Assembly (NCBI GenBank): GCA_963792895.1
Contig: CAWBYA010000007.1
Span: 986,305 to 1,050,304 of the forward strand
Source: an uncultured Acidimicrobiia bacterium
GTDB lineage: Bacteria; Actinomycetota; Acidimicrobiia; Spongiisociales; UBA5794
Reading direction: 5' to 3'
Length of the DNA stretch: 64,000 nt
Shown piece by piece: positions 1,706 through 31,817 of the stretch. A program made the position numbers and the translations under genes. Every line of letters starts with the position of its first letter. Within the stretch, counting starts at the first letter, position 1. The notes below the pieces were generated by a model. The model saw nothing but the letters and a program-made list of their open reading frames with translations, searched no databases and had not been told where the DNA came from.

Positions 1706-1747
1706 TCAGGTCTGCGGTCTCAGGTCTGCGGTCTGATGTCTGCGGTC
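1706..1747. repeat. 3 x 14-bp tandem repeat (tcaggtctgcggtc, third unit degenerate) in the glgC/glgA convergent region; encodes the last ~13 aa of GlgA
   Basis: Direct reading: caggtctgcggtct caggtctgcggtct gatgtctgcggtct. Confidence 0.6.
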
Positions 1748-3115
1748 TGAGAGCGACTCGTAGATCTCGATCTGGCGAGCTGCGGGGGCTCTCCACGACC
1801 AATCGTGGCGCATACCGCGCAGCTGGATCGACTTGCGACGCTGTGGCGAGCGCCACGCCCGTGCAGCACGATGGACTGCGTCGAGGAGCGCCGTCGGTAC
1901 GGGCTGCGAGGCGACGAACCCCGTGCCGCTGCGCGGGTGCGCGTCGTCATCGATGACGGTGTCGTGCAACCCGCCGACGTCGGTGACGATCGGGATGGTC
2001 CCGTACACCATGGCCTGCATCTCCGCGAGCCCGCATGGCTCGAATCGGCTCGGCATCAGCAGCAGGTCGGCGCCCGCAAACATGCGATGGGCCAGCGCCT
2101 CGTCGAAACCCTCGATGAAGTGGAACCGTCGCGGATGGGCCCCTGCTACCCACCGCGCCCTGTCGGCCAGGCCACGGTCGCCCGAGCCGAGCACCACCAG
2201 CCGCGCCGGGATTCGATCGAGGTACTCGATGAGATCGAGGGCCAGGTCGACCCCTTTCTGCCATGTCAGTCGAGTGACCATCGCGATCAGCGGGCTCCGT
2301 TCGGACGCCCATCCGACCTCGGCGAGGAGGTTGCGGCGAGCCTGCGCCTTGGGGCCGAGGTCGCGCGCCGAGTAGTGCACGGGCAAGTGGCGGTCGGTGC
2401 TTGGGTCCCACGTGGGATCGATGCCGTTGCGGATGCCGACGAGGCGGTTGCCCCTCGACCGGAGCGCCTCGTGGAGTCCCGCGCCATTCTCCGGATGCTG
2501 GATCTCCTCGGCGTAGTGTGGGCTCACCGCCACGACGTAGTCGGCCAGGGCGATGGCTCCCGAGAGGGGGTTGGTCGAGCCGTGCCATTCGTACGCCGAG
2601 GTCCGGTAGGACATCAACTCGAGCCAGCCGGCGTGGCTCGTGCCCTGATAGGCGAGGTTGTGGATGGTCAACACGGAAGGCACAGGACCGCCGAGGAAGC
2701 CGAGCGCGGCGCCTGTGTGCCAGTCGTTCAAGTGCAGCACATCCGGCGCCAGCTGTTTCGCCAGCTCGGCGACGGCGGCTGAGAACGCCATGAATCGGAA
2801 GTCGTTGTCGTGCCACCCGTGGCCGGATGCGTCGTTGTACGGATGGGGCCGCTCGATGGCGGGAGTGCGCACGCTGATGAGCGGCACGCCACCGAACACC
2901 CGCCCGCGTCGATACGTTGTGATGCCCACCCACGGCGGCATGTCGAGAGCATGCGGGGGGCCGTCGCCCGCGTCGTAGGTGCCGTAGTCGGGCAGCGCAA
3001 CGGTGACTTCGACGCCTGCGTCGTGGAGCGCCTCGATGAGACCCGCGGCGGCATAGGCGAGGCCGCCGACCCTCACCAACGGGGCGAGCTCCGAGGTCGC
3101 AAAGAGGACCTTCAC
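1706..3115 (-). CDS. glgA: glycogen synthase GlgA (ADP-glucose type), C-terminal half of a continuous 1182-aa ORF
   Basis: VKVLFATSELAPLVRVGGLAYAAAGLIEALHDAGVEVTVALPDYG... is a typical GlgA N-terminus, with a GTG start at 3115..3113. There is no in-frame stop separating it from the upstream GlgX. Confidence 0.8.
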   Translation of the reverse strand: MKVLFATSELAPLVRVGGLAYAAAGLIEALHDAGVEVTVALPDYGTYDAGDGPPHALDMPPWVGITTYRRGRVFGGVPLISVRTPAIERPHPYNDASGHGWHDNDFRFMAFSAAVAELAKQLAPDVLHLNDWHTGAALGFLGGPVPSVLTIHNLAYQGTSHAGWLELMSYRTSAYEWHGSTNPLSGAIALADYVVAVSPHYAEEIQHPENGAGLHEALRSRGNRLVGIRNGIDPTWDPSTDRHLPVHYSARDLGPKAQARRNLLAEVGWASERSPLIAMVTRLTWQKGVDLALDLIEYLDRIPARLVVLGSGDRGLADRARWVAGAHPRRFHFIEGFDEALAHRMFAGADLLLMPSRFEPCGLAEMQAMVYGTIPIVTDVGGLHDTVIDDDAHPRSGTGFVASQPVPTALLDAVHRAARAWRSPQRRKSIQLRGMRHDWSWRAPAARQIEIYESLSDRRHQTADLRPQT

Positions 3116-5254
3116 TCGGCCCGCTCCTGGCAGCAGCACCACGAGTCCAAACGCGGCGACCGGAAGCGTGGCGCCCTCTCCGAGAGCATGACGGGGCGGC
3201 TCCCCTTCGAGCCCCGTGTCGACCAGGGGCGTCCACGGCGTTCGCCCCAGCCCTCGCGGGATCGTGAAGGTGCGACTGCGATGGGCCGGATGCAACATGA
3301 GGAGGAAGCTGTCGTCGACGGGGGCGGAGCCTGCGGCGTCTGGCACGACCAAGCCGTCGCCGTTGAGGTAGATGGAGACGGACGTCGGTGTGGCGGCGTC
3401 CCAATCGTGCTGCGACATGCTGGTTCCTTCCGGCGTGAACCAGCGCACGTCGTCGAGGCTGGACCCGTTCGCCGGTGTACCACGAAGCCACGTGCGCCTG
3501 CGGAAGACGGGATGGCGACGGCGGAGATCGATCATGCGGCGAACGAAACCGAGGAAGGTGGCGTCCACATGCTCCCAGTCATACCACGAGATTTCGTTGT
3601 CCTGTGCGTAGGCGTTGTTGTTCCCATGCTGCGTACGGCCGAGCTCATCGCCTCCGAGCAACATGGGCACGCCCTGGGACACGAGGAGGGTTGCCAGGAT
3701 GCTCCTCTTGCGCCGATTCCGGAGCTCGCTGATCGCCGGATCGTCTGTGGGGCCTTCGACGCCTGTGTTCCATGATCGGTTGTCGTCGTGGCCGTCCTGG
3801 TTGGATTGCCCGTTCGCCTCGTTGTGCTTGCGCTCGTAACCGACGAGGTCGGAGAGCGTGTAACCGTCGTGGCTCGTGACGAAGTTGATCGAGGACGTGG
3901 GCGGGCGGCGCCCGGCGTGGGCGAAGACGTCCGAGCTTCCGGTGAGCCGGTATGCGAGGTCGGCGCGAGTGCCGGGTGTGGCCCGCCAGTAGTCGCGTAC
4001 CGTGTCGCGGTACCGATCGTTCCACTCTCGCCACACCGCGGGGAACGACCCGAGCCGATAGCCGCCTGGCCCGACATCCCATGGTTCCGCAATCAGCTTG
4101 ACGCTGTTGAGCACCGGATCCTGGAACATGAGATGGAGGAATGGGCCCGCTGCGTCGAACGCCAAGCCGCTGCGGGCCAGCGTCGTGGCGAGATCGAATC
4201 GAAAGCCGTCGACGTGGTACTCCTCGACCCACAGCCTGAGGCTGTCCGCGATCATCCGCAGCACCGCCGGGTGGTCGGTGTTGATCGTGTTGCCGACGCC
4301 GGAGAAGTCGAGATAGTGGCGGGGATCCTCGTCACTGAGGCGGTAGTACGCAGGGTTGTCGATGCCGCGAAAGCTCAGGTTCGGCCCCAGGTCGTGTGAT
4401 TCGCCGGTGTGGTTGTACACCACGTCGAGGATGACCTCGATTCCTGCGTCGTGGAGCGTCTTCACCATCCGCTTGAACTCCGCCACCTGACCACCCGGCT
4501 CTCGAGAGGCTGCATACCCGTGGTAGGGGGCGAAGAACCCGATCGGCTGGTAACCCCACAAGTTGCGCAGACCGTGGCGGACGAGCGCATGGTCGTGGAC
4601 GAAGTGCTGGACCGGCAGCAGTTCCACGGCCGTCACTCCGAGGGAGCGCAGGTGCTCCACGACGGGAGGGGAGGCGAGGCCCGCGTACGTGCCGCGCATC
4701 TCGGGCGGAACGGCAGGGTGACGTTGCGTGAGGCATTTGACGTGGGTCTCGTAGATCACGGTGTCGTGCCACGCGGTTCGAGGCCTGGCGTCGTCTCCCC
4801 ACGCGAAGGTGTGGTCGACGACGAGCGACTTCGGTATGAATGGGGCACTGTCGTGAGGTTCGCGCTGGTTCGGATCCTGGATGTCGAACCCGTAGACGGC
4901 GCGGTCCCAAGCGATATCCCCGTCGATCGCAGCCGCGTACGGGTCGATGAGGAGTTTCGCCGGGTTGCACCAGAGGCCGTGTTTGGGCGCCCACGGTCCC
5001 TCGACGCGGAGCCCGTAGCGGGTGCCCGGGCCGATGTCTGTTACATAGCCATGATGTACCGGACCGTCTGTTGCCGACAGCCAGTACGTGGATTCCATTC
5101 CGTCCTCGGCGAACACGCAGACGGCGATCGACTCTGCGATGTCCGAGTGAACCGCGAAGTTCGTGCCGCGTCCGTCGTACGTCGCGCCGAGTGGATTCGG
5201 TCGGCCGGGGAGCAGGTGCGTCATGGCTCGGCGAGGGTACCAACCCGTGGGCAA
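3116..5254 (-). CDS. glgX: glycogen debranching enzyme GlgX (GH13 isoamylase), N-terminal part of the continuous 1182-aa ORF
   Basis: MTHLLPGRPNPLGATYDGRGTNFAVHS... plus GH13 catalytic motifs (GFRFDLA, EPWD). C-terminus ...FLLMLHPAHRSRTFTIP...LVVLLPGAGR is typical of the GlgX end. Confidence 0.85.
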
Positions 5255-5267
5255 CGCGCCGAAGGCT

Positions 5268-5702
5268 TCACGTGGCGCGCGGGGTGATGTGAACGGTGCC
5301 GGTGAAGAGACCTGCGATGCGCCCGTCGCTGCGGCTGAGGGTGATGCGGTAGGTGGCGAGCGTGCGGCCTCTCGTCACCTCCTCGGCGACCGCGGTCAGA
5401 GTGTCCGAGTGACGGGTGGCCGCAGTGAGCACGAGGTGGGTGTCGATGGCGACTGCCCTATCGCCGTGAGCGTTCGAAGCGAGACTGAACGCGCAGTCGG
5501 CGAGAGAGAACATCGCACCTCCGTGCGTGACGTCATAGAAGTTCTCGTGGTCGGGCCGGACCGGCATCGCAACCGTCACGGGCGCGACGTCCACGAGTTG
5601 GAGTCCGAGGAGCGCGGCGTAGCGGTCTCGCGTGAACAAATCCCGGATGCGCTCCGCCCGCTCGGTCGGGTTCGTCAACGCAAGCGGCTGGTCAGGCGCC
5701 AC
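5268..5702 (-). CDS. PaaI-type hotdog-fold thioesterase
   Basis: 144-aa ORF with HGGAMFSLADCAFSLASN... hotdog thioesterase signature. Confidence 0.7.
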   Translation of the reverse strand: MAPDQPLALTNPTERAERIRDLFTRDRYAALLGLQLVDVAPVTVAMPVRPDHENFYDVTHGGAMFSLADCAFSLASNAHGDRAVAIDTHLVLTAATRHSDTLTAVAEEVTRGRTLATYRITLSRSDGRIAGLFTGTVHITPRAT

Positions 5703-8204: not shown

Positions 8205-10446
8205 ATGTCCCCGGATCCCCCTGCCAACGACCTACGGAGCGTGACCTTCGCATCGGCATTGCGCGGCTACGACCGCGATGCCGTCGATCGTTTCAAGATC
8301 GAAGTGGCCGACAAGGTTGCCGACCTGGAGGGCCAGGTCGCTCGGCTCCGGAGCAAGGTCGATCAGATGGGGATCGATGCGGTTCCCGATCTTGCCGCGG
8401 AGATCACGAAGGTGGGCGCCGACGTCACGGCTGTCCTCGATGAAGCGCGCCGGGCAGCCGTGGAAATGCGTCATCGGGCTGCTGCAGACGCAGCGAGGTG
8501 GCGTGGCGAGGCGGAAGCCGACGCTTCGGCAGTCACGGCGGCGGCTGATGCCGAGGCGGCTGCGCTGCGCGGCGCCGCATGGGAAGCCGCGACCACCATG
8601 CTCGACCAGAGTCGAACGACCGTCGCTCAGCTGGTGAACGCCGACGCGCCAGGATGCCTTGTTCATACGCGCCGAGGCCGAGCGCGAAGAGCTGCGAATG
8701 GTTGCGGAGTCGCGGCGCGCTGCCGAAGACGCACTGCGTGCCGCACGGGCCGAGGCGACCCAGATCACGGAGGATGCCAGAGACGAGTCTGAGCGCATGC
8801 TCGACTCGGCACGGCGCTCTGCCGAGGCGGCGCAGGAGCGAGCGAGAGCCCTCGAGGCGCGGCGGTCGGAGCTGATGCGGGAGCTCGAAGCCACCAGACG
8901 ATCCATCGACGAGCTCGGCACACAGATCGACGAGGGCCGAGCCGGCACGCAGGTGGCCGCGATGCGGGTCGCACATCCCGCCGACGAGCCGGACGCTGGG
9001 CCGCCGTGGAGCGAGAGCGATGCCACCGTCAAGATCGTCCCGGCCCACAACGCAATGCTCGCCGAGCGAGTGGACGCCGACGAGCTCGCCGCCGAGGTCG
9101 AACGTATGCGCAGCGCGCCGCCCGCGCCAGAGCCGGAGCCGGAAGCCGAGGTGACGGTGCCTGAGCCGGAACCCGAGCCGGAACCCGAGCCGGCGCCGGA
9201 AGCCGAGGCGGCGGAGCCTGAGCCGGACCGGGAACCTGAAGCAATGCCAAGGCGCGAGCCTGAGGTCGAGCCGGAAGCCGAGGTGACGGTGCCTGAGCCG
9301 GAACCCGAGCCGGAACCCGAGCCGGAACCCGAGCCGGCGCTGGAAGCCGAGGTGACGGTGCTTGAGCCGGAACCCGAGCCGGAACCGATGCCAGGGCGCG
9401 AGCCGGAGCCGGAGATGGAAGCCGGGGCGGCGGAGCCTGAGCGCGAGCGCGCAGCGCCTCGGCGTGAGCGTGCAGAGGTCGAGCCGGCGCCGGAGCTCTC
9501 CGCAGCATCTCACGAGCCGGAACCGGACGCGGGAGTGGCTGCGCCGATCGGCGACGAGACCCGGGAACTCGAACCGACGGGGGGGCCATCGGCTTCACCT
9601 CCTGGCGACAGCCCGAGGGCGGCTCCCATCGGCGACCTGTTTGCGAGCCTGCGCTCCCCAGACGACGTTGCGCCGTCATCCGCTGAGCGCTCCAGCGACC
9701 CAGGGCCGGAGAGCTTCGACGCAGACCCCACGGCGTCCGCGTCGGCGCAGAGCCTGCCTCAACGTGCGCTGGGATCGTCATTGACGCCGCGAGCTGCCTT
9801 CGACATGCGGGAGCGCCTGCTGCTGCCCGCAGAGAACGAATCGCTGCGCGAGACCAAGCGGGCGATCCTCGAATTGCAGAACCGGAGCCTCGAGGCTCTG
9901 CGGATCGGCGGTGGGGAGTGGAAGCCCGAGCCGGCCGCATTCACGGCAGCCCTCGCCGCCGGTATCTCTCGACTCGAGACGGCCTCGTTCAGAGCCGGCA
10001 TCACGGCATCGGGAGAACTGACGGGTAGACCCGCACCCGCCTCAACAGCGGCGACCACACTGGATGGAGCCGCCCACGTTGCCGGCGCGCTGGTTGCGGC
10101 CCTGCGCGAGGCTCACGACCGTGCCGCCGATTCTGGCAAGGGCCCGAGGGAGTCGTCTGCGGCCGTGTCCCGAGTTTTTCGCGCCTGGCGCACCGACGAG
10201 GCGGAGCGGCGGCTGCGTGCGCTGGCCTACAGGGCGTATCACGAGGGCGTTCTCGCTGGGCTTGCCGCGCTCGGAGTCAAGGCAGTGACAGCGGTTACCG
10301 AGGGTCGGTTGTGTGCCGAGTGCCCGGCGGCTTCGGGCGCAGTCTGGGACCCGACGCGCCCACTACCGGCGGGCGTCATGCTGCCACCGGCGCATCCCGA
10401 GTGCGTCACCACCATCGTGCCGGTAGCGCCGATCGGCAGCGAGTGA
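8205..10446 (+). CDS. DivIVA-domain protein with long Pro-Glu repeat and Cys-rich C-terminal domain; apparent +1 frameshift near 8645
   Basis: [30 protein letters not shown] is a DivIVA N-terminus. Frame switches (frame 3 to frame 1) at gcgcca, where removing one C gives ...[19 protein letters not shown]. Coiled coil, (PEPE)n region and a C-terminal CAECP...HPEC domain follow. Confidence 0.7.
9117..9440 (+). repeat. Tandem gagccggaacccgagccg-type repeats encoding the [22 protein letters not shown] acidic linker
   Basis: Directly visible nucleotide tandem repeats; they generate spurious antisense ORFs (8533..9513, 9029..9940). Confidence 0.7.
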
Positions 10447-10593
10447 TGACGTGATCCGGCGACGCAGCTCCCACAGCAAGCAGCGGCGTTTGTTCACCGA
10501 CCCGGCGCGGCAGGATGCCCAACGACCGGGCCAGGCGGGGCCATTCGGGCCGGCGCGGACGATAGGCCGTGAGCCTGCAATAGAATCCCGCTC

Positions 10594-16418: not shown

Positions 16419-16907
16419 TCACCGCATGCGCTGGAACGTGACGAGCGGGAGATAGGCCCAGGTCCACAGGGCAAGGCCGGCCACTGCAGCGGCTGCGATG
16501 GAAGCGCTGACATCGTCGATGACGAGGCTCGAAACCATGAACACGGTTGCGACGTGGGCGATCACGAAAGCCGCCGTTCCGCCGATCGCGAGCCAGTTGG
16601 CGATGTGGACGTGGCGTGCGGAGCGGCGGGGAAGACCGCTGATGGGCGCCCGCACCCGTTGATGGACGGCCGGGGCGATGAGGAGTACGGAGGCCACCGC
16701 GCTCGAGATGAACGCGATGTAATACACGGAGCGATTCGATCTCGAGATCTCGGCGAAACCCGACTGCAGGGGCAACACGAGCAAGAAGGCAAAGAGGACC
16801 TGGACGCCGGGGAGCGTTGTTCGCAGGCCCTCCAGCAGCGAACGGAACTGGTCATCGGTCGCGCCGGACTGCTCGAGAGAGGGTTGCTCGTCTGCGGAGA
16901 TGCTCAT
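16419..16907 (-). CDS. DUF6328-like small membrane protein
   Basis: MSISADEQPSLEQSGATDDQFRSLLEGLRTTLPGVQVLFAFLLVLPL... with 3-4 TM helices. The upstream extension in the track is not coding. Confidence 0.5.
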   Translation of the reverse strand: MSISADEQPSLEQSGATDDQFRSLLEGLRTTLPGVQVLFAFLLVLPLQSGFAEISRSNRSVYYIAFISSAVASVLLIAPAVHQRVRAPISGLPRRSARHVHIANWLAIGGTAAFVIAHVATVFMVSSLVIDDVSASIAAAAVAGLALWTWAYLPLVTFQRMR

Positions 16908-16977
16908 GCCCACCCCTACCCGGTGCGAGGCACAGCCAAACCGGGTTGCCCCGGCGTGGGCCGGCCTACTGTTGTCC

Positions 16978-17373
16978 ATGTGGAACGATGGGGAACGAGC
17001 GTTGCGCGAGGTTGAAAGAGGGCCAAGCGGTGCGCGGGTCTCCGCGCTGGTTGCGCACGTGCCGCCCGCCCGGCCGTCGCTTCGCCTTGCCGTTGGTGAC
17101 GACGTTGTTGTCGAGAGCCGTGATTCGGATTGGCCGGCATTCGTCTTCGTGCGCACGGGGGCAGGCGGAGGCTGGGTACCGGCTCGCTACCTCTCGGCGA
17201 ACCGTGGCCTGGCGAGGGTGCTGACACCGTACGACACCACAGAGCTCGCCGTCGCCGCCGGTCAAGAGCTCACGGTTGTCGTACGAGACGACGAAAGCGG
17301 CTGGCTGTGGTGCCGAAACGAAGCCGGCGAGGAGGGATGGGTCCCCGAGCGGTCACTCCGCCGGGCCGAGTGA
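16978..17373 (+). CDS. bacterial SH3-like domain protein
   Basis: ...VGDDVVVESRDSDWPAFVFVRTGAGGGWVPARYL...GQELTVVVRDDESGWLWCRNEAGEEGWVPERSL: two SH3-like beta repeats. Start uncertain. Confidence 0.45.
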   Translation: MWNDGERALREVERGPSGARVSALVAHVPPARPSLRLAVGDDVVVESRDSDWPAFVFVRTGAGGGWVPARYLSANRGLARVLTPYDTTELAVAAGQELTVVVRDDESGWLWCRNEAGEEGWVPERSLRRAE

Positions 17374-17380
17374 CCGGCCG

Positions 17381-17914
17381 TCAGCGAGCCAGGACTGCGA
17401 GTACCTCGTCGATGTCGGCGTGGTCCCCGGCAAACGCCTCGCGGTCCTCGTAGAGGATTTCGTCGCTTGGACCGAGCACGACGGTGGCACCGAGCTGAAG
17501 CGGGCGCCGACCCGTCTTCTGCTGTCTGTGCCCTCTGGCAAACGAGCGAACCCCTGCGACCACTGCATCGGGGCGCAGCAACGACGCCGCACCCAGCTTG
17601 CCGGTGCCGACGATCTCGGCGGCCCGGCCGTCCTCATCGAGCAAAACCGGAAACGGCACCTTCTCGTCTTCGATGAAGGCTGCGGCGTAGCGTTTTCCGC
17701 CCGTGCCGATGGCGGTGACGTGTGCACCCGCGGCGAGGATCTCGTCGTATCGATCGCGGACCTGACCGGCCCGCTCGCGGCAGGTCAGTCAGCCAAAATG
17801 CCGCAAGAAGAGCAGCACGTGGGGTTGCTCTGCCCAGAGATCACCGAGACGATGGTCGGTCCCGTCGGAATCGACGAGGACCTCTTCGGCGAGCTGAACG
17901 GCGTCGAAAGGCAT
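17381..17914 (-). CDS. candidate selenoprotein: PRXL2/AhpC-TSA-like thioredoxin-fold oxidoreductase with in-frame TGA (Sec) at 17789..17791
   Basis: ATG at 17914. MPFDAVQLAEEVLVDSDGTDHRLGDLWAEQPHVLLFLRHFG-[TGA]-LTCRERAGQVRDRYDEILAAGAHVTAIG... continues in the same frame to 17381. The TGA sits exactly where the family has the first Cys of its CxxC motif (FGCxxCRE). A stable hairpin follows the TGA. Confidence 0.6.
17762..17788 (-). promoter_or_regulatory. SECIS-like hairpin immediately 3' of the in-frame UGA
   Basis: mRNA CUGACC-UGCCGCGAGCGGGCC-GGUCAG: perfect 6-bp outer stem, inner GCC/GGC pairing, apical loop containing G. Confidence 0.35.
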
Positions 17915-18004
17915 GTTGCTCCAGACGGTGCGAGACACTGATCGTAGACCTGGCCCCACATGCAGCCGGAAAGCCGCTCGCCTGCCCGGTAGTAGCTTGA
18001 TCGT

Positions 18005-18544
18005 ATGGAGCGTCCCGACGTCACGATTCGACCGGAGAGGCCGGACGACCACCCGGCGATTCACAGTGTGGTGACGGCGGCGTTCGGCTCTACGGCGGAA
18101 GCGGAGTTGGTTCGCGCCATCCGGCGCTCCCGCCACTACGTCGCCGAGATGAGCCTGGTCGCCGAGTCGGATGGGGCCGTCGTCGGTCACGTCATGATCA
18201 GCGGCGCGACGCTGCGCTCCGACCGAGGGGACGCCCCCATCGTGATGCTCGCACCGCTTGCGGTGGCGCCGGATCGCCAGCGTGCCGGGGTCGGATCGGC
18301 GTTGGTGCGCGCAGCCTGTGCTGCAGCAGAGGACCGTGGCGAGCCATTGGTCGTGCTCGAGGGAGACCCTGCGTACTACGGCCGGTTCGGTTTTGAGCCG
18401 TCCTACGAGCACGGCATCGAGCTTCCGTTGCCCGACTGGGCCCCCCACGAAGCTGGCCAGGTCCTTCGCTTGAATGCCTTCGATCCGTCGTTGACCGGCA
18501 CCGTCGCCTATCCGGAAGCGTTCGACGCCCTCACCGATGGGTAG
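18005..18544 (+). CDS. GNAT family N-acetyltransferase
   Basis: ...LAVAPDRQRAGVGSALVRAACAAAEDRGEPLVVLEGDPAYYGRFGF matches GNAT motifs A/B. Confidence 0.8.
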   Translation: MERPDVTIRPERPDDHPAIHSVVTAAFGSTAEAELVRAIRRSRHYVAEMSLVAESDGAVVGHVMISGATLRSDRGDAPIVMLAPLAVAPDRQRAGVGSALVRAACAAAEDRGEPLVVLEGDPAYYGRFGFEPSYEHGIELPLPDWAPHEAGQVLRLNAFDPSLTGTVAYPEAFDALTDG

Positions 18545-18619
18545 TGGCGCGACGCAGTAGCGTGCGGGCGGAGCGCATCGCAGTCGACTGATCCAGGCTT
18601 CGCGCTCTACCCTGCCGCT

Positions 18620-20560
18620 ATGCGTAGGACCCCCCTGTTTGTCATTGGCCTTCTCGTCGGGTTTGGTGCCCTGATATCGGCATGTGGTGGAGACGACACC
18701 GCCGAGATACGGATGCTGGACAACTCGTTCGCTCCGCGCGTTCTGGAGGTGGCCCCCGGCGAGGCCGTTCGGTTTGTCAACGCCGGCCGCGTCGAGCACA
18801 ACGCCATTGCAGCCGATGGAGCGTTCAACACTCTCGAGGCTGCGGGAGGGAACCAGCAACCCGGTGCCTCGTGGACGGTCACCATCGACGAGCCGGGTGT
18901 GTACGACTACTTCTGCTCGCTGCACGCAACGCAGAACGATGCCGGCGACTGGGAGGGCATGGTTGGCACCCTCATCGTTGGTGACGTCGCCGACGCTGCG
19001 GACGTGGCCGCAGCCGAGTCGACGGCGCCTGCGAGGTGGACCGAGGTCACCCGAACAGTGCCCGAGGACTACCCCACCGTTCAGTCGGCCGTCGACGCAG
19101 CCGATCCCGGCGATCTCGTGCTCGTCGGCCCGGGGGTCTACAAGGAGTCCGTCTCGGTGACGACGCCGGGGCTGACCATCCGGGGGACCGACCGCAACGA
19201 GGTGATTCTCGACGGTGAGTTCACCAGAGAGAACGGCATCGCCATCACTGCAGACGGGGTGGCCGTTGAGAACCTGACGGCGCGCAACTACACGGTCAAC
19301 GGCTTCTTCTGGAATGGGGTCACCGGGTATCGGGGCTCGTATCTGACGGCGATCGACGACTGGGTGTACGGGATCTATGCCTTCGACTCGGTGGATGGGG
19401 TGTTCGATCACTCCTATGCGTCCGGCTCCTACGACGCCGGGTTCTACATCGGCCAGTGTGATCCATGCAATGCGGTGGTCACCGACGTGGTCGCCGAGTT
19501 CAACGGTCTCGGCTACTCGGGAACGAACAGCTCCGGCAACATATGGATCGTCAACTCCGAATGGCGCTACAACATCGCAGGCATCGTTCCCAACACGCTC
19601 GACTCCGAGCTGCTCCCTCCGGTCAACAACGTCGTGGTCGCCGGCAACTACATCCACGACAACGGTGAGGACGAGCGCGCCCCATCCGGCACCATCGAGT
19701 GGGCGGCGTACGGCAACGGCGTGGTGCTCGCAGGTGCCCGCGATTCGGTGGTGCGCAACAACCTGATCGTGAACAACAAGACGTCTGGGGTGCACATCAT
19801 CTCCATGATCGACGCCAACTTGTGGCCATCGGGCGGGAACGAAGTGCGTGACAACGTGATCGTCGGCTCCGGCCGAGCCGACCTGGCGCTCGGCGGGCCG
19901 CTCGAGCAAGGATCCTGTTTTGCCGACAACAGCGTACGGACAACGGTTCCGTTCTGGCTGCGCCAGCTCCACAGTTGCGACGGCATCAACATCCCGTTGT
20001 TCTACGGGATGGCGGCGACGTCGGAGACCCTCGGGCGCCTCGCCCAGGCGGAGAACGGACAAGTTTCCGAGCTCGAGCACGGAGACGCTCCCAAGCCGGC
20101 ACAAGAGTTCGATCTCATGCCGGGTGGCGCCAACGCACCGGTGTCGCCGGCGGTGAACGTGTTCGCCTCCTTGGACTTCGACCCGGCCGCAGTCGAGACG
20201 CCGCTCATCCGCGCCGGGATCGACATCGACACCCGACGTCCTGCTGCCTTCGGCATCGCACTCGACGGCGGGTTCTGGCCCGTTGCCATGGGTGCCCTCC
20301 TGTGGTGGGCGCCGCTCCTCACCTGGATGCTCGGCGGCGTGTGGGCCGTGGTGCGCATCTGGAACAGCCCCCGCACCACTACCGCAAAGGTGGTCTGGTT
20401 CCTCGCGGTGGTCGGTCTCCCCGTGTTCGGCGTGCTCGCCTTTGTCGTGTTCGGCTACAAACGGATGGGCATCTGGTACCGGATCGGGTACGGGATCGGC
20501 GGCCCTGTCGTATGGCTGATCGCAGTGGTAGGCGCGTTGGCGATCGGCGGCGTCGTGTGA
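18620..20560 (+). CDS. lipoprotein with N-terminal cupredoxin-like domain, central right-handed beta-helix (NosD-like) and C-terminal PLDc_N-type 2-TM domain
   Basis: Lipobox LISACGG. Cupredoxin-like YDYFCSLHATQNDAGDWEGMVGTLIV. Repeated NG/NN beta-helix turns. C-terminal WWAPLLTWMLGGVWAVVRIWNSP...VWFLAVVGLPVFGVLAFVVFGYK. Confidence 0.65.
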   Translation: MRRTPLFVIGLLVGFGALISACGGDDTAEIRMLDNSFAPRVLEVAPGEAVRFVNAGRVEHNAIAADGAFNTLEAAGGNQQPGASWTVTIDEPGVYDYFCSLHATQNDAGDWEGMVGTLIVGDVADAADVAAAESTAPARWTEVTRTVPEDYPTVQSAVDAADPGDLVLVGPGVYKESVSVTTPGLTIRGTDRNEVILDGEFTRENGIAITADGVAVENLTARNYTVNGFFWNGVTGYRGSYLTAIDDWVYGIYAFDSVDGVFDHSYASGSYDAGFYIGQCDPCNAVVTDVVAEFNGLGYSGTNSSGNIWIVNSEWRYNIAGIVPNTLDSELLPPVNNVVVAGNYIHDNGEDERAPSGTIEWAAYGNGVVLAGARDSVVRNNLIVNNKTSGVHIISMIDANLWPSGGNEVRDNVIVGSGRADLALGGPLEQGSCFADNSVRTTVPFWLRQLHSCDGINIPLFYGMAATSETLGRLAQAENGQVSELEHGDAPKPAQEFDLMPGGANAPVSPAVNVFASLDFDPAAVETPLIRAGIDIDTRRPAAFGIALDGGFWPVAMGALLWWAPLLTWMLGGVWAVVRIWNSPRTTTAKVVWFLAVVGLPVFGVLAFVVFGYKRMGIWYRIGYGIGGPVVWLIAVVGALAIGGVV

Positions 20561-21633
20561 GCGAGCCGGGCGAGTCGGCTGCACCCCGCATCAGCCGGCG
20601 CGAGGCGCTGAAGAGGGTCGGTGGTGGCAGCTTGACGGTGCTCGGTGCTGGCGTCGTCGTCGGTGCGGTGGGCACCCATGCCGCAGCACACGCCGCAGGC
20701 GCAGCAGGCGCTCCGGCGGCAGATACGCACGGTGACGGCGCAGCGCACTACGGGGACGGCCGGGTTTCGGCCGAGCTGCCGACCGGCGCCGCTGCGGGAC
20801 CGTATGGCGGCGACTACTCACCACCCGATGGGCTCGGCTTGGGCGACCTGGACGCGCTCACCTTTCCTCCACGGCCGACGTCAGGCACGGTCGAGGTGGA
20901 GATGACCGTCGTCGAGCGGTCGCTCCAAGTGAGCCGGGCGCACACAGTCGACGCCTGGACCTACAACGGCACCGCGCCGGGACCGACCATCCGTGCGACC
21001 GAGGGCGAGTTGATCCGGGTGCGCTTTCGCAATGCCACAGGCCGCGACCACAACCTGCACTTCCACGGCAGGCATTCGCCGCTCCACGACGGCTGGGAGC
21101 CGGTGCCGCCCGGCGCCGAGACCGTGTACGAGATCGAGGCCGGGCCCGCCGGGGTCCATCCCTATCACTGCCACACGATGCCCATCGATCGGCACATCGC
21201 CAGGGGCCTGTACGGCACGCTGATCGTCGATCCGCCGGGTGGCCGCCCTGATGCCCACGAGGTGGTGCTCGCGCTGTCCGGGTGGGACGTCGACGACGAT
21301 GGGCGCAACGAGGTGTATGCGTGGAACGGTGTTGCGGGCTTCTACGAGAAGTACCCGATCAAGCTGCCTGCCGGCGAGCCGGTGCGTGCGTATGTGCTCA
21401 ACATGACCGAGTTCGACCCGGTGGCGAGCTTCCACCTCCACGCCGAGACGTTCGCCGTGTACCCGGCGGGGATGGGCGAGCGCCCGGCCTTCACGACCGA
21501 CATCGTCACGTTCGGCCAGATGGACCGGGCGATCGTCGAGTTCACGCTGTCCGAGATCGGCCGCTATATGTTCCATCCCCACCAGCACACGGTCATGAGC
21601 CGCGGTGCGATGGGCTGGTTCGCCGCGATCTGA
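20557..21633 (+). CDS. Tat-secreted multicopper oxidase (two-domain laccase/NirK-like)
   Basis: GTGA overlap with the upstream gene. Tat motif SRREALKRVGGGSLTVLGAG. Copper ligand motifs HNLHFHG, HPYHCH, HLHAETF, HPHQH. Confidence 0.8.
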   Translation: MSEPGESAAPRISRREALKRVGGGSLTVLGAGVVVGAVGTHAAAHAAGAAGAPAADTHGDGAAHYGDGRVSAELPTGAAAGPYGGDYSPPDGLGLGDLDALTFPPRPTSGTVEVEMTVVERSLQVSRAHTVDAWTYNGTAPGPTIRATEGELIRVRFRNATGRDHNLHFHGRHSPLHDGWEPVPPGAETVYEIEAGPAGVHPYHCHTMPIDRHIARGLYGTLIVDPPGGRPDAHEVVLALSGWDVDDDGRNEVYAWNGVAGFYEKYPIKLPAGEPVRAYVLNMTEFDPVASFHLHAETFAVYPAGMGERPAFTTDIVTFGQMDRAIVEFTLSEIGRYMFHPHQHTVMSRGAMGWFAAI

Positions 21634-23038: not shown

Positions 23039-23425
23039 ATGTCAAGAAGCGAGGGAGGGCCGACCACACCGATGACCGGTCTGGTCGCCGGCGGCGCGAG
23101 CATGGGACCCGTTGGGCGATTGCGGTACCGGAGCGCTGATGCGAGCATCCGGCGACTCTTGCGGAGGGAGGTCTGGTGAACGCTCTATGTCGATGGAGCC
23201 GTGGACACGGTGGAGAGCACGGTGCCGTCACCGATGTCGGAGCGGTTCCGGCCGGCTCGCAGGTGACCGTGACGCGGCCCTACGAGGGCGCGACGAGTTG
23301 AGGAAGACTCCGCCGGCTCGGAGTCCTTCATCAAGGAGCCCGAAAAGGCGTTCCATGAGCGCAGCCGGCGGCGTTGTCGCTCTGGCCGTGACGGTACCGC
23401 ATTGACGAGAAGGGATGCCGGAGCG

Positions 23426-25304
23426 ATGACGGAGGAATGGACGGTCACCTCGCCGGACGGGCGAGTGGTCTTGACCCTGAGAGAGACCGCCGATCCAATC
23501 GGCGGTACCCGGTTCGAGTATGCCGTGGCCCGGGACGGGCAACCCGTGCTCGATCGATCCCGGCTCGGGATTCAGACGGAGACGGCGGACTTCTCTGCGG
23601 GTCTCCAACTCGAATCCGCGGGCGCCGAGGTGCGGGTTGAGGATGCGTACACGCTGGTGCACGGGAAGCAGCGTGTGGTCGAGTCTGTGGGTACCGAGCG
23701 GAGGTTCGTGCTGCGGTCGAGCACGGGTGAGGTGATGACGCTGATCCTGCGTGCGTACGACACGGGGGTGGCGTTCCGTTATCGCTTCTCTGAGGGGCGC
23801 AAAGACGTTGTGCGCGCCACCGACGAATTGACGGAGTTCAGCTTCGCTGCGGGAGGTCGGGCCTGGTTGTTGCCGCACCAACTCCCCGACGTCTCCGGTC
23901 CGGCGTACGAGAATGCCTATGTCAACGGTGTCGACATCGGCCACGGCTCCCCGATACCGGGATGGCTGTTCCCCGCGCTGTTCCAGACCGCCGACACGTG
24001 GGTGTTGTTGACGGAGGCGGACCTCGACGCCACCTATTCGGCGGGCCATCTCCGCCCCAACCCGGTTGGGTTCACGTATCGCATGGCGTTCCCGCAGCCG
24101 TCGGAGGCGCTTGGGCTCGGCTCCCGGCTCCCCGAGAACCATGGACCGTGGCAGACCCCGTGGCGGGTCGCCATGGTCGGGGATCTCACGACGATCTTCG
24201 GAAGCACCTTGGTGCACGACCTCTCCCGGCCGTCCCAGGTCGAAGACACGACTTGGATTCGCCCCGGTCGAGTGTCGTGGAGTTGGTGGTCCAATCACGA
24301 GAGCCCACGAGATGTTGCAGCTCTCGAGTCATTCGTGGATCTCGCCGCCGACATGGGCTGGGAGCACACGCTGATCGATGCAAACTGGAACCTCATGCCG
24401 GTGGAGGATCTCGAGAAGGTCATCGCGCACCGTGCGAAGCCGGGGGGTCGGCGTGTTTCTCTGGTACAACTCGGGTGGGCCGAACAACCGGGTGACCGAG
24501 GAGCCGCGCGACCGTATGTTCGACCGTTCGGTCCGGCAGGAAGAGATGGCATGGCTCGCCGAGGCAGGCGTCTCCGGCATCAAGGTCGACTTCTTCCACT
24601 CCGACAAGCAGGCCGGCATCAAGCTGTATCTCGACATCCTCGCCGACGCCGCGGAGGCCGGGTTGATGGTGAACTTCCATGGTTCGACCATCCCGCGGGG
24701 GTGGGAGCGAACGTGGCCGAACCTGATGTCGATGGAAGGGGTGCGGGGCGCCGAGCAATACGAATTCCGGCCGACGTACCCGGAAGAGGCGCCGTGGCAC
24801 AACACCGTATTGGCCTTCACGCGCAACGTCGTCGGCCCCATGGATTACACGCCCGTGACATTCTCAGATGCGATGTACCCCCACGTCACGACGAATGCGC
24901 ACGAGCTGGCGCTTGCCGTCGTATTCGAGTCGTCGCTCCAGCACTTCGCCGACAGCGTCGAGTCCTACCGCGCGCAGCCGCCCGAGGTTGTTGACTACCT
25001 GCGGACAGTGCCAACCGTTTGGGACGAGACGAGGCTCCTCGCCGGCGAGCCTGGGCGCTATGCCGTTGTGGCGAGGCGGAGTGGTGCACAGTGGTTCGTA
25101 GCCGGCATCAACGGTGTCGACGAGCCGCGGTCGATCAGTCTCTCGCCGAGCGACCTCGGTATCGACGGCAGAGTCCGCGTCATCTCGGATGGTGCCGATG
25201 CGCGTTCATTCGCCATCGTCGATGGAGAGCTCGGCCCGGATGCGACCCTCGACGTCACGATGGCGCCGTTCGGCGGATTCTCCGCGCTGGTCCCCGCAAG
25301 CTAG
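23426..25304 (+). CDS. glycoside hydrolase family 97-like protein; apparent frameshift at G6 run 24442-24447
   Basis: GH97-like N-terminal domain in frame 2, then GVGVFLWYNSGG...GIKVDFFHSDKQ...MVNFHGSTIPRGWERTWPNLMSMEGVRGAE in frame 3. Removing one G gives VIAHRAKPGVGVFLWYN. Confidence 0.7.
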
Positions 25305-26068: not shown

Positions 26069-27462
26069 CGTCTGAGCGTGTGTATGCCCTCTTGGTCGAG
26101 GCGAATCCGGTGCCCGATCCGGACGCCTATCTCGAGGCGGCGGACGCCGATCGATCCCCGCTCCACCTCGTCGAGTCGAGGAGAGCAAAGATGAAGACAG
26201 AGGAAGACATTCGCCGCATCAGTGCCGAACCGTCGACGCGCCCGCCATGGCTGGCGGCAGTGGCGGCTGCGATCCTCATTCTGATCGCAGTCGGGGCGGT
26301 GGCGTGGTTTGCAGGCGGCGACGAAGCGCCGGTCGTGGACGAGCCGCCACCGGCGACGGTGGCCGAAACGAACGCAAGCACAGATGCCACCGCGGCAACG
26401 GAGGCGTTCCTTACAGCGTTGTCGATAGGCGACATCGACGAGGTGGAGCGGATCACAAACCCGGGCGGAGAGCTGTCGGTCGCCGAGCGGCGGCTGTGGG
26501 AGTTCCATGCCGCGCTGTCGGCTGCCGGCTACGGCGATCGGTTCGGGTCGTGCACTGCCACTCCGGCGACGGATGGTCGCACGGTTCCTGTCGCCTGCCC
26601 GGCCGTCACTGGTGACCCTGTGATGATCGCGTTTGGAATCACAGAGTTGGTGTGGCCATTCGAGTACTTCCCGGAGAGCGGGAGGCTGGCGTGGAGGCCC
26701 TTTGAGGGCGTGGACATCAGTGCCGTCAATCGGGCGACTGCCGACTATCTCGCGACGTTCCATGCAGACGAGTATTCGGCGGTCTGTGACCCTGCGGCCT
26801 ACAACTTCCAGGGGGTCGTGATGGACCGGGGTCTCGCCATAACGGGAGAGTGCGGCGAGGTGCTCGTTCCGCTCCTGGAGGACATCGCCACCTGGATCGA
26901 GGCCGGTCAACCCGTGCCGGAGGATGCGCTGGGTTCGGTTGAGGCGTTCTTCGCAGCGTTGACCGCCGGCGACATCGACGAGGTGGAGCAACTCGCGGCA
27001 CCACAAGGCGAGATGTCGGAGTCCGACCGGCGGATGTGGGGCTTCAATGCCGCCATGTACGCCGCCGGCTACGGGATGCAGCCGGGCGAGTGCTCGGCAA
27101 TCAGGGATGCCGCCGACGGCCGGATTGCGGTGCGCTGCCCGGTTGAGGTGGTGGATCCCGTGTTCAATGCCGTCGGGATAACCGAGCTCGTGATGCCATT
27201 CGACTACTTCCCGGCTACGGGACAGCTGGCGTGGCGGCCGTTCGAGGGCGGGGATTTCTCGCTCGCCAACGCAGCGATGGCCGAGTATCTGCGGGCGTTC
27301 CGTACCGCGGAATACGACGCCGCGTGTGACCCTGCGGCGTACGGCTTCGTGGGGATCGTGTTCGACCGCGGACTGGCGTTGTCGCCGGAGTGCGGCGAGT
27401 TGGTGGCCCCCTTGCTCGACGAGATTGCGACCTGGGTCGAGGCGGGCCGGCCCACGGGCTGA
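26065..27462 (+). CDS. membrane-anchored anti-sigma factor with tandemly duplicated extracytoplasmic domain
   Basis: ATGA overlap with the sigma factor; single TM (WLAAVAAAILILIAVGAVAWFAG); two ~170-aa repeats beginning AFLTALSIGDIDEVE / AFFAALTAGDIDEVE, each with four conserved Cys. Confidence 0.6.
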   Translation: MTSERVYALLVEANPVPDPDAYLEAADADRSPLHLVESRRAKMKTEEDIRRISAEPSTRPPWLAAVAAAILILIAVGAVAWFAGGDEAPVVDEPPPATVAETNASTDATAATEAFLTALSIGDIDEVERITNPGGELSVAERRLWEFHAALSAAGYGDRFGSCTATPATDGRTVPVACPAVTGDPVMIAFGITELVWPFEYFPESGRLAWRPFEGVDISAVNRATADYLATFHADEYSAVCDPAAYNFQGVVMDRGLAITGECGEVLVPLLEDIATWIEAGQPVPEDALGSVEAFFAALTAGDIDEVEQLAAPQGEMSESDRRMWGFNAAMYAAGYGMQPGECSAIRDAADGRIAVRCPVEVVDPVFNAVGITELVMPFDYFPATGQLAWRPFEGGDFSLANAAMAEYLRAFRTAEYDAACDPAAYGFVGIVFDRGLALSPECGELVAPLLDEIATWVEAGRPTG

Positions 27463-27582: not shown

Positions 27583-27662
<80 letters not shown>

Positions 27663-28878: not shown

Positions 28879-30105
28879 TCAGCCGGGCTCGAACACAAGC
28901 TTCCCGAACATCGCCGCAGCGTCAGCCTGCATCCCGGGGAGAACGTGTTGGTAGACCTGCATGGTGAAGGCGACGCTCGAGTGGCCGAGGCGTTCGCTGA
29001 CAACCTTGGGCGGGACACCTTCCTTGAGGAGAAGCGTGGCGTGCGTGTGCCGCAAGTCGTGCAGCCTGATACGGGGAAGGTCCATCTTGGCGATGAGGCG
29101 CTCGAAGGCCTGCGAGAAGTAGTCGGGGTGGAGCGGGTCGCCGTTGTGCTTGGCGAAGACGAAGCCTGATTCGTCGGTCCTTGCGCCGGTCTCCATGTCG
29201 TGTTCGAGCTGGTGTCGTCGCCACGATCGCAACACGGCGATCGTTCTCTGGTCGAGGTCGATGGTCCGCAGGCTGTGGGCGCTCTTCACGTCGGAGACGG
29301 TGACGTGGTAGTTGGGGGCTGTGACGTTCTGGGTGACCGCCAGGCGGCCGTTGTCGAAGTCGATCACTCGCCAGGTGAGCCCGAGCACTTCGCCGCGTCG
29401 CATTCCCGTGTTGGCCTTGACGTAGAACGCGTCGTACAGGTGGTGGCCCTCGATCAGCTCGAGGAAGCGCCGGAGCTCGTCCGCCGTCCAGACTCTCATC
29501 TTGGGTCGGGCTCGGGTCGTGAGCTTGGGCGGGTCGGCGAGCCCGGCGACGTTGCGGGTCACGGAACCCTTGCGGGTGGCGTCGGCGAGCGCTTTGTGGA
29601 TCACCGCGTGAACCAGTCGGACCGTCTTGGCGCTCAGCGGCCCACCGCCCTTGTTGTGCCGTCCATCGGCGAGCAGCGTGGCATAGAGCCCGTCGAGGTC
29701 CTCACGTATGAGGCGCTGCAGCGGGATCGAGCCGATGTAGGGCAGGACGTGAAGTCGGATGTTCGCCTGATAGGACGAGAAGGTCGACGGTGCCAGCGGT
29801 TGCCGCTGGGTGGGCAGCCAGCGTTCCAGGTACTCGCCGAGGGTGATCCGCTCGGGCGGCCGGTAGTCCCCGTCGTGGTGACGCTTGACCAGATCGGTCA
29901 GGACCCGTTCGGCTTCCTTGCGGGTCGAGCCGGCGGCATGCCAGCGGTGCCTCTCCTTGCCGGTGGTCGTCTCGGTATCGACGAGGAGATGGCGGCGTCG
30001 ATCGTGGATGAGGCGGTGGCAGGCGCTGGCGCAGCGGCAGTCGACGTGGCGTCCCGCCGAACTGGTCCGCGAGCTCGCCACCCACGTCCCCACCAACGTC
30101 ACCGT
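28879..30105 (-). CDS. int: tyrosine-type site-specific integrase (start uncertain)
   Basis: C-terminal catalytic box LHDLRHTHATLLLKEGVPPKVVSERLGHSSVAFTMQVYQHV (R...HxxR...Y), plus an N-terminal arm/SAM-like region (TGKERHRWHAAGSTRKEAERVL). Confidence 0.75.
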   Translation of the reverse strand, partial: TVTLVGTWVASSRTSSAGRHVDCRCASACHRLIHDRRRHLLVDTETTTGKERHRWHAAGSTRKEAERVLTDLVKRHHDGDYRPPERITLGEYLERWLPTQRQPLAPSTFSSYQANIRLHVLPYIGSIPLQRLIREDLDGLYATLLADGRHNKGGGPLSAKTVRLVHAVIHKALADATRKGSVTRNVAGLADPPKLTTRARPKMRVWTADELRRFLELIEGHHLYDAFYVKANTGMRRGEVLGLTWRVIDFDNGRLAVTQNVTAPNYHVTVSDVKSAHSLRTIDLDQRTIAVLRSWRRHQLEHDMETGARTDESGFVFAKHNGDPLHPDYFSQAFERLIAKMDLPRIRLHDLRHTHATLLLKEGVPPKVVSERLGHSSVAFTMQVYQHVLPGMQADAAAMFGKLVFEPG

Positions 30106-31817
30106 CGACCCGGACCAGCTGGTCGGGTTTCTGCAGCGGCTCGCCGACCACACCGCCATGACACGCTGTGTCGACCTGTCCCCGCCGGTTCCCGCCGGGG
30201 TGGCGGTGCGGCGGGATGGGCGACCGATCACCGAACCGGCCACCACCCGGCTGCTCACCACCCAAACCATCCTCGACCAAGAAGACGGGCCTGCTGGAGT
30301 GGGCCGAGCAGCGACGGCGTCTCAGCAACAGCCTGCCGCCACGACCCGTCGCCGTCCCTGAGGGGTTGAGTGGGGGGCAGGTGGAGGTGTGTGCGGCGGT
30401 GGCCGGGTCGGGACCGTTGGAGTTGATCGTGGGTCCCGCCGGCACCGGGAAGACCACCGCCCTCACCCCCGCCGTCACCGCACTGAAACGTCAAGGCCGG
30501 GCTGTGTTCGGGGTGGCGCCCACGGCAGCCGCAGCGGAGGTCCTCGCTTCGGAAACCGGGATGGAGGCGGACACGGTGGACAAGTTCCTCTACGAACACA
30601 CCCGCCCCGACCGGCCCCCGGCTGCGCAGCTCGGGTTGGGGGTGGGGGCGACGGTGATCGTCGACGAGGCCGGCACCCTCTCCACCCCGAACCTCGCCGA
30701 GTTGGCGCGGCTCGCCGACCACCACCACTGGCGCATCGTCCTGGTGGGGGACCCGCGGCAGTTCTCCGCCGTGGGGCGGGGTGGCATGTTCAGCCACCTC
30801 ACCACCACCTACGGCGCCATCGAACTCGACCAAGTCCACCGCTTCACCCACCAGTGGGAGGGGGAGGCGTCGCTGCGGCTCCGCACCGGCGACCCGTCGG
30901 TGCTGGTCGAGTACGACCGCAGGGGACGTCTCCACGACGGCACCGCCCACGACATGGAGCGTGAGCTCGTGGAGGCGTGGCGGCAAGCCAGGGTCCGGGG
31001 CGAGTCGGTGGCGGTGATGGCCAACCGCACCGCCACCGTCACCCACCTCAACCGCCTCGCCCAATCCACACGCATCACGGACGGTGAACTCGACCCGCAC
31101 GGCCCGAGCCTCACCGTCGGCGACTACGAGTTGTTGGTGGGGGATGAGGTGGTGACCCGCCACAACCAACGCCGGCTACGCACCGACCGGGGGGTGATGG
31201 TCAAGAACCGCGACCACTTCACCATCACCACCATCCACGACGACCGCAGCCTTACCGTCACGGGCCGGAGCGGCACGGTGCGTCTCCCCGCCGGGTACGT
31301 GGCTCAACATGTGGAGTTGGGGTATGCCCAGACCAGTCACGCCACCCAAGGCCGCACCGTCGACACCGCCCTCCTCTACCTCGATGCTCCCACCGACACC
31401 CGCGGCGTCTACACCCCCATGACCCGAGGCCGACACGCCAATCACGCCTACGTCGTCACCGACGCCACCACGACCGCCGTCGACGTGCTCACCCAGAGCC
31501 TGGCACGGGACTGGATCGACCACCCCGCCCTGGCTCGCAGACAGCAGCTAGCGGTCGAGCCGGCGGCGGTGCCGGTGTGGTCGTCGCTGCAGACGGCCCG
31601 GCTCGACAGGACCCAGCAGCCGTCGCCGTACCGCACGGGACAGCAACCCGGTCCGGCCGAGCCTGGACCGGCTGAACGAGCCGGAGCACGAGCAGCGAGT
31701 CTGGCGGCGGCTCACCGAGATCCAACACCGAGCCGCAGAGCAGACTGCGGGCCGAGAAACCCTCGGCCTGGAACGCTGACCCAGCGCTCTGTCCGATTCC
31801 ACATATTGGTGTGGTAG
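30020..31817 (+). pseudogene. 5'-truncated, frameshifted MobF/TraA-type relaxase-helicase remnant
   Basis: Only the C-terminal helicase part is present (GPAGTGKTT; VLVGDPRQFSAVGRGGMF; GYAQTSHATQGRTVDT). Frame switches near 30290 (TILDQED/KKTGLLEWAEQRR). The relaxase N-domain is absent and the 5' end abuts the integrase. Confidence 0.65.

Follow-up and report, generated by a model that had tools for sequence, protein, structure and literature searches.

Peroxiredoxin-like (Prx-like) selenoproteins with a UxxC motif, in which U is selenocysteine (Sec), have been predicted within the Pfam families PF00578 and PF08534 since 2005–2008 and, of the selenoprotein families of bacteria, belong to the most abundant (PMC2398784, Table 2; PMC13188914). 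Those described as Prx-like thiol:disulfide oxidoreductase or Prx-like 1–3 were predicted from the Sargasso Sea, from Global Ocean Sampling (GOS) metagenomes and from Deltaproteobacteria (same sources). Here we describe a locus on the minus strand of a 64,000-nucleotide stretch of contig CAWBYA010000007.1 (positions 986,305 to 1,050,304; hereafter the window), from an uncultured Acidimicrobiia bacterium, in which an in-frame UGA at window positions 17789–17791 divides a thioredoxin-fold reading frame. This UGA very probably encodes Sec, and we hold with high confidence that the locus is one gene for a predicted 177-residue thiol-selenol oxidoreductase related to PRXL2 and SelL. A Sec-containing U-x-x-C oxidoreductase, split by an in-frame UGA in an actinobacterium, had been proposed from the nucleotide sequence (the original prediction), and that proposal is supported by evidence from domains, from the alignment column of the UGA and from selection.

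The locus shares with the Prx-like UxxC selenoproteins an AhpC/TSA-type thioredoxin fold, Sec as the first residue of UxxC, many Cys homologues and an element of the selenocysteine insertion sequence (SECIS) type within the coding sequence (CDS) after the UGA; reference proteins such as WP_010940744.1 entered this comparison by description only. It differs in lying closest to the AhpC-TSA_2 family (PF13911) and the NCBIfam model NF040769 rather than to classical Prx, in the signature FLRHFG-U-x-x-C-R-E, and in a distribution mainly within Acidimicrobiia and Actinomycetota.

The frame comprises 177 codons from an ATG at 17914 to a terminator TGA ending at 17381. In order of translation it reads MPFDAVQLAEEVLVDSDGTDHRLGDLWAEQPHVLLFLRHFG, the in-frame TGA (17791–17789), LTCRERAGQVRDRY…DEVLAVLAR and the terminator (17383–17381), with FLRHFG directly preceding the UGA. 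The sequence and its translation agree exactly with the single frame, start, in-frame TGA and end given in the original prediction. On reading the sequence, no start signal comparable to the GGAG/ATG pair at the head of the gene follows the UGA. Public gene calls on the same DNA in another assembly (contig_3667, locus L084) report a 41-aa stub and a 92-aa fragment, just the mis-annotation that had been anticipated. A 41-aa stub with a shortened ‘peroxiredoxin-like’ piece is likewise what the public records of L084 and of two further loci (L001, L003) contain; that of a third (L002) holds the piece alone. Two independent assemblies (contigs of 1,340,699 and 248,915 bp) agree on the TGA, which is therefore not a read error.

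To place the locus among its homologues, 5.8 billion proteins were searched and the best 120 clusters examined. In 104 of these the protein is 110–144 aa long and starts at or after the position of the UGA, many with ‘MTCRERAG’; the remaining 16 clusters are of full length, and Cys is found in each of those that were sequenced here (FLRHFG-C-x-x-C-R-E). The DNA behind three of the shortened matches has the same layout, with about 41 conserved codons, a TGA and then the remainder of the gene. A locus scan restricted to one genome per species gave 80 loci, to which the window and L001–L003 were added for the column count. At the FLRHFG-[U/C]-x-x-C-R-E column, TGA, and no other stop codon, occurs in 38 distinct loci (39 before L031, which duplicates L003, is set aside) and TGC or TGT in 42 others; every one of the 38 Sec-type loci has Cys as the second redox residue of the motif. 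The Sec-type loci are mostly labelled as Acidimicrobiia, Actinomycetota or Actinomycetes metagenome-assembled genomes (MAGs), with single bins assigned to Kiloniellales, Deltaproteobacteria and Spirochaetaceae. The window protein is 64–78% identical to its orthologues, with no frameshift and no extra stop. For an independent marker of the window, UPF0182, the named relatives reach 83% identity and belong to Acidimicrobiia/Actinomycetota, which assigns the organism to Acidimicrobiia.

Recurrence of TGA at one column in 38 distinct loci is far beyond chance, and the alternation of Cys and Sec at a catalytic column is, judged from these alignments, a selenoprotein signature; Cys or Sec at this column is what had been expected of the homologues. 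The same distribution bears on the suggestion that the TGA arose by nonsense mutation or stands for TGC/TGT through a sequencing or assembly error, with the pieces a pseudogene or artefact. At least one apparent frame disruption does occur elsewhere in these MAGs (the GH97 split near 24378–24994), but the TGA loci come from species-representative genomes and metagenome contigs of different projects and sequencing platforms, they extend to saturated synonymous divergence, the codon is present in both assemblies, and selection persists downstream of it. An error or pseudogene is effectively refuted. In a separate observation, two members of the family, one of Sec type (FLRHFG-U-LFCRE) and a Cys-type paralogue (CIFCRETVADLRE), lie within 20 kb on a Spirochaetaceae-labelled contig (L045).

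Selection was assessed on 24 distinct sequences of the subgroup to which the window gene belongs (subgroup A). The proportion of synonymous differences (pS) and the ratio of the nonsynonymous proportion to it (pN/pS) were 0.66 and 0.34 for the 30 codons 5′ of the UGA, 0.65 and 0.19 for the 37 codons 3′ of it with the hairpin described below left out, and 0.66 and 0.26 for the C-terminal block. Both sides of the UGA are thus under purifying selection at near-saturated synonymous divergence. In 22 of the 24 sequences the codon following the UGA is CTN or ATC (non-start), and the first in-frame start downstream lies 18–70 codons away, past invariant residues that include Cys45, so that the downstream part can be made only via read-through of the UGA. 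The codon has not been reassigned, since TGA is still the normal terminator of 17 of the 24 genes, the window gene included.

The high G+C content of the window (65.7%) gives rise to long spurious frames that overlap the locus on both strands. The real gene could in principle be the plus-strand open reading frame (ORF) at 17276–17941 (221 aa, G+C at third codon positions 0.75) or the minus-strand 931-aa ORF at 17789–20584, both of which are long and open. Such frames are, however, usual in 66% G+C DNA, the 931-aa ORF is antisense to a called copper-binding/beta-helix gene, and the Pfam, NCBIfam and Protein Data Bank (PDB) matches, hundreds of homologues and the pN/pS pattern all fall on the frame from 17914 to 17381, which makes the probability that either ORF is the gene negligible.

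With the UGA modelled as Cys, Pfam and NCBIfam scans placed the 177-residue protein among thioredoxin-fold redox families. AhpC-TSA (PF00578; residues 13–104, 46.4 bits against a gathering threshold of 26) and Redoxin (PF08534; residues 11–105, 39.8 bits against 26.6) both span codon 42, while AhpC-TSA_2 (PF13911) covers residues 53–159 (46.5 bits against 27). The best NCBIfam model, NF040769 ‘SelL-related redox protein’, aligns end to end (8–172 of 173) at 98.4 bits, below its cutoff of 120, which indicates a peripheral or sister clade and not a member by the NCBI rule. Cys relatives score 88–125 bits, only one of them (P0057) passing the cutoff, so the family as a whole stands at the edge of that model. 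SelL itself, a vertebrate and aquatic protein with a UxxU diselenide motif, has, through NF040769, its redox motif at the same position; the second motif position of the window protein is TGC (Cys45), so that it is not SelL proper and no diselenide is possible.

The AlphaFold (AF2) model considered here is that of a Cys form, P0001, 73% identical to the window protein (mean predicted local distance difference test score, pLDDT, 83; residues ~105–140 of low confidence). It presents a thioredoxin fold in which strand 32–36 leads into the RHFG-C loop and helix 43–54 starts at the motif. Its best match among solved structures is human PRXL2B (9usa, 9us9; Foldseek E 2.7e-10, template modelling (TM) score 0.73 by query and 0.81–0.87 by target), followed by ResA/DsbE and BCP/PrxQ proteins, and PRXL2B is also the only full-length sequence match in the PDB (profile E 1.7e-7). 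In this prostamide/prostaglandin F synthase, 22–23% identical to the bacterial protein, the CxxC residues C44 and C47 would correspond to positions 42 and 45, judging from alignment offsets, with Cys44 where the bacterial protein has Sec. On the model, the protein fits the PRXL2 family: it combines a thioredoxin fold and a C-terminal extension with a CxxC-type motif where helix α1 begins. The PRXL2/AhpC-TSA-type fold of the original prediction is thereby borne out, by one Pfam domain running across the UGA as well as by the closest solved structure.

Comparison with ResA assigns the UGA column to the first, nucleophilic Cys of CxxC. Sec had been suggested to replace either the resolving or the attacking Cys; it is the attacking, N-terminal one that the alignment favors, and the resolving alternative falls away. 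Similarity to ResA/TlpA/DsbE in sequence and fold covers residues ~8–120. Members of that group are secreted or attached to the membrane by an anchor and have no AhpC-TSA_2 extension at the C-terminus, whereas no N-terminal hydrophobic anchor is apparent from the sequence of the window protein. A typical peroxiredoxin (Prx/BCP) was considered and rejected: when aligned to the peroxiredoxin 5epf, Cys45 coincides with the peroxidatic Cys, Sec42 with the Thr of TxxC and Arg38 with the Pro position, so that there is no PxxxTxxC motif but one of the CxxC (oxidoreductase) type.

Downstream of the UGA, the RNA can form the hairpin GCGGGCC-GGUCA-GGUCCGC, which begins 14 nt after the UGA and whose stem is intact in all 24 subgroup A orthologues. 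Its codons CGG GCC GGT CAG GTC (+6 to +10) display zero synonymous variation across these sequences, in which the flanking codons for conserved residues vary by 0.65–2.3 bits; pS is 0.10 within the hairpin codons against 0.65 outside them. The closing pair joins the wobble base of Glu+5 to that of Arg+11 and covaries (GC in 13 sequences, AU in 4, GU in 1, unpaired in 5), a score reached by 1 of 500 shuffles. The 17-nt core CGGGCC-GGUCA-GGUCCG folds at −9.6 kcal/mol. In position (within ~10–40 nt downstream of the UGA), in the G/U of its apical loop and in being under selection, the hairpin has the attributes of a bacterial SECIS. The E. coli fdhF SECIS, to whose apical loop SelB binds, is likewise a stem-loop of the ORF that follows closely on the UGA, and in both elements this loop opens with GGUC; the spacer is 11 nt in fdhF against 14 nt here, and the 7-bp stem here has no bulged U.

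The original prediction had also placed a bacterial SECIS after the UGA, and a selected hairpin does lie there, 14 nt downstream, although it is not the stem that had been drawn. The RNA then quoted, CUGACCUGCCGCGAGCGGGCCGGUCAG, is found directly after the UGA and is part of the regional minimum-free-energy (MFE) fold. As a functional SECIS, its CUGACC/GGUCAG stem was rejected: it is intact in only 12 of the 24 orthologues, and the changes in it are pair-breaking only, none compensatory. Starting at the codon beside the UGA, this stem would also lie inside the ribosome with the UGA in the A site.

A different hairpin was found in a more distant set of 14 sequences with the motif U-L-H/L-C-R-E-H-A-A-Q-L-R (subgroup B). 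It has the form …CGC-AGUU-GCG… and lies 18 nt after the UGA, so that it departs from the fdhF element in both loop and spacing. Its positions are 89.8% paired, against at most 58% in slid controls, 3 of 7 pairs have changed on both sides, and its covariation score was reached by none of 500 shuffles. CAG TTG occurs in all 14 Sec forms and is replaced by CAG CTC or CAG CTG in the closest Cys relatives (L025, L026, L042), a contrast which indicates that the subgroup B element tracks the UGA; the closest Cys forms of this subgroup are mostly without the hairpin. Two other Cys-type loci with TGT, L085 (2–544, of subgroup A type) and L028 (~10001–10531), retain the complete hairpin of their Sec-type relatives. 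From their sequences they look like recent Sec-to-Cys switches that have kept a ‘fossil’ SECIS.

Several results weigh against Sec insertion at this locus and have to be set beside the evidence above. Neither selA, selB, selD nor a gene for tRNA-Sec was found in the 64-kb window, where the only tRNA is tRNA-Met, and a tblastn search of the window and 85 loci (~1.4 Mb) with E. coli SelA, SelB and SelD as queries matched only a BipA GTPase. As to the hairpin, 6 of its 7 stem pairs are invariant in subgroup A, so that the evidence for it is invariance of synonymous sites and not covariation; the local MFE fold is not exceptional (z = −0.99, with 30 of 200 shuffles folding as well), and for this reason energy alone was rejected as evidence; and no Rfam family matches the hairpin, at the gathering threshold or at E ≤ 10. 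Rfam covers bacterial SECIS elements poorly, as a 2026 preprint on Actinomarina points out.

Other searches for the machinery gave the same answer: ARAGORN, run on the window and on 37 Sec-type loci, detected no tRNA-Sec, and Pfam scans of 30 window ORFs and of the L084 gene calls, in agreement with tblastn, found no SelA, SelB-wing/SelB or AIRS/SelD domains. Absence of the sel genes from the window and flanks is expected if they are unlinked to the selenoprotein gene. Two scans of the window for a second selenoprotein gene returned no credible candidate. Sec decoding is documented elsewhere in the class, cultured members among them: Peng et al. (2016) list Ilumatobacter coccineus (15 selenoproteins) and I. 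nonamiensis (10) as positive for SelD, SelA and SelB, with 7 selenoproteins in Ca. Microthrix parvicella and none in Acidimicrobium ferrooxidans, and the 2026 preprint reports that every one of 84 Actinomarina genomes (Actinomarinales) has selA, selB, selC and selD. In addition, on one contig of our set (L037) the Sec-type Prx-like gene has, at a distance of 1.8 kb, a second selenoprotein gene that is recognized independently as a member of the UGSC family (Pfam PF24696, 111 bits; ~8345–8722, +). Its own UGA, at 8477, is embedded in AD-U-GSC, and after a spacer of 11 nt there follows the perfect 7-bp hairpin GUCGUGC-AGUGU-GCACGAC. Sec use in Acidimicrobiia and Actinomarina, together with this UGSC gene, lends indirect support to Sec decoding in the lineage of the window.

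Two alternatives draw on the missing machinery. The hairpin might stimulate read-through of the UGA without Sec, by near-cognate Trp, Cys or Arg, or might serve as a switch between termination and continuation that yields a 41-aa peptide and some full-length protein; a read-through stimulator would also show conserved downstream structure, and Sec genes were not found in the window and the flanks examined. The recoded position is, however, exactly the catalytic CxxC Cys column, where the sole alternative codons are those for Cys, and the GGUC-type loop stands at a SelB-compatible distance in a class known to decode Sec, so that we consider such read-through very unlikely. Alternatively, the Sec machinery may have been lost recently from this genome, leaving a UGA that terminates in a decaying relic. 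Patchy use of Sec in Actinomycetota, its absence from Acidimicrobium ferrooxidans and the lack of machinery genes in the window would fit such a loss, but the ORF, the SECIS and all conserved residues are intact, two assemblies give an identical sequence, and orthologues remain 64–78% identical, with neither frameshift nor additional stop; we judge a relic to be highly improbable.

If the UGA is decoded as Sec, translation would initiate at ATG 17914, and on arrival of the ribosome at 17789–17791 the GCGGGCC-GGUCA-GGUCCGC hairpin would be positioned just outside it. There the hairpin may bind SelB·GTP·Sec-tRNA(Sec), so that selenocysteine would be inserted rather than translation terminated, and elongation would continue to the real stop at 17381. 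In the folded protein, Sec42 is predicted to occupy the N-terminus of helix α1, in the place of the nucleophilic Cys of CxxC. Its selenolate would attack the substrate and Cys45 would resolve it as a selenenylsulfide, giving a cycle between the selenolate/thiol and selenenylsulfide forms. Candidate substrates to be reduced by the Sec42/Cys45 pair are a disulfide, a peroxide or a lipid-type compound.

Because both Prx-like UxxC selenoproteins and Sec decoding in Acidimicrobiia are already documented, the gene is a new, mis-annotated family member, possibly of its own subfamily, and involves no new mechanism; knowledge of how Sec is encoded is unchanged. A literature search, which did not extend to the BSepDB family lists, found no published Sec form of the PRXL2/SelL-related clade in Actinomycetota. 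We tentatively raise the possibility, which we regard as rather less than even, that the FLRHFG-U-x-x-C-R-E clade is an uncatalogued SelL-related/PRXL2-type selenoprotein subfamily, predominant across a large uncultured Acidimicrobiia/Actinomycetota radiation, with two lineage-specific SECIS designs (GGUCA and AGUU) and recent Sec-to-Cys switches (L085, L028). Such a subfamily would form a natural series in which Sec/Cys exchange and SelB–SECIS co-evolution could be followed in Actinomycetota. The main value of the finding is practical and lies in correcting the mis-annotation: the same shortening affects 104 of the 120 clusters, so that selenoproteome counts and inventories of redox enzymes for soil, sediment and saline Acidimicrobiia are understated. 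The gene also marks this uncultured lineage as one that decodes selenocysteine, its two well-defined actinobacterial SECIS variants could improve SECIS models, and the protein would be a bacterial Sec counterpart to the human PRXL2 enzymes.

Table 1. Features of the predicted selenoprotein gene, in window coordinates.
Feature	Position	Strand	Description and basis
Complete selenoprotein CDS (predicted)	17381..17914	-	Sec codon 42, Cys codon 45, terminator TGA 17381-17383; sequence and translation, Pfam, orthologue architecture
In-frame UGA, predicted to be read as selenocysteine (U42)	17789..17791	-	Position 1 of U-x-x-C; TGA/TGC/TGT column comparison, ResA CxxC alignment
TGC, Cys45	17780..17782	-	Partner of Sec in U-L-T-C; invariant column, aligned to the peroxidatic Cys of 5epf
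Shine-Dalgarno-like GGAG (putative)	17919..17922	-	4 nt 5' of ATG 17914; read from the sequence CUGGAGCAACAUG
Conserved SECIS-type hairpin	17756..17774	-	5' arm GCGGGCC (17774-17768), loop GGUCA (17767-17763), 3' arm GGUCCGC (17762-17756)
Alternative hairpin CUGACC…GGUCAG of the original prediction	17762..17788	-	Present in the window MFE fold; mutually exclusive with the conserved hairpin

The gene (Table 1) is flanked in the window by a divergent GNAT acetyltransferase gene on one side and a convergent ORF with an SH3 domain on the other. The latter, at 16900–17373 (+), has its SH3 domain at the C-terminus (Pfam SH3_2, E 1.2e-10), ends 7 nt from the stop of the selenoprotein gene, and is missing from the public gene calls on this DNA (L084). 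An inverted repeat, GGTCACTC…GAGTGACC (17375–17351), spans the convergent junction and may be a bidirectional terminator without a U-tract. A conserved neighbor gene was sought across the loci of the family, and none was found outside one closely related sub-clade.

Elsewhere in the window, a tRNA-Met gene (27583–27657, +) is followed by a phage-type integrase (28882–30321, −) and an AAA_30/TraI-like helicase (30162–31814, +), and the segment 27583–31814 looks like an integrative element inserted at tRNA-Met. The other public assembly (contig_3667) stops at window position ~27666, at the tRNA-Met/integrase junction, which suggests that this island is variable or breaks assemblies. A GH97 glycoside hydrolase at 23402–25304 (+) is split into GH97_N and Glyco_hydro_97/GH97_C parts on ORFs 23402–24994 and 24378–25304; these overlap in different frames, which indicates a frameshift, either a pseudogene or an indel error. 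As a second recoding site the split was rejected, being a change of frame with no in-frame stop. The 1,222-aa ORF at 1709–5374 (−) joins N-terminal CBM48 and alpha-amylase catalytic domains to a C-terminal GT5/GT1 starch synthase and adjoins a GlgC-like nucleotidyltransferase (556–1539); it is an unusual single-polypeptide arrangement of glycogen-metabolism enzymes. Short self-similar stretches at 9120–9442 and 26401–27446, which appeared as extra blastn pieces between the window and L084, probably represent repeats, tandem or dispersed, within coding sequence.

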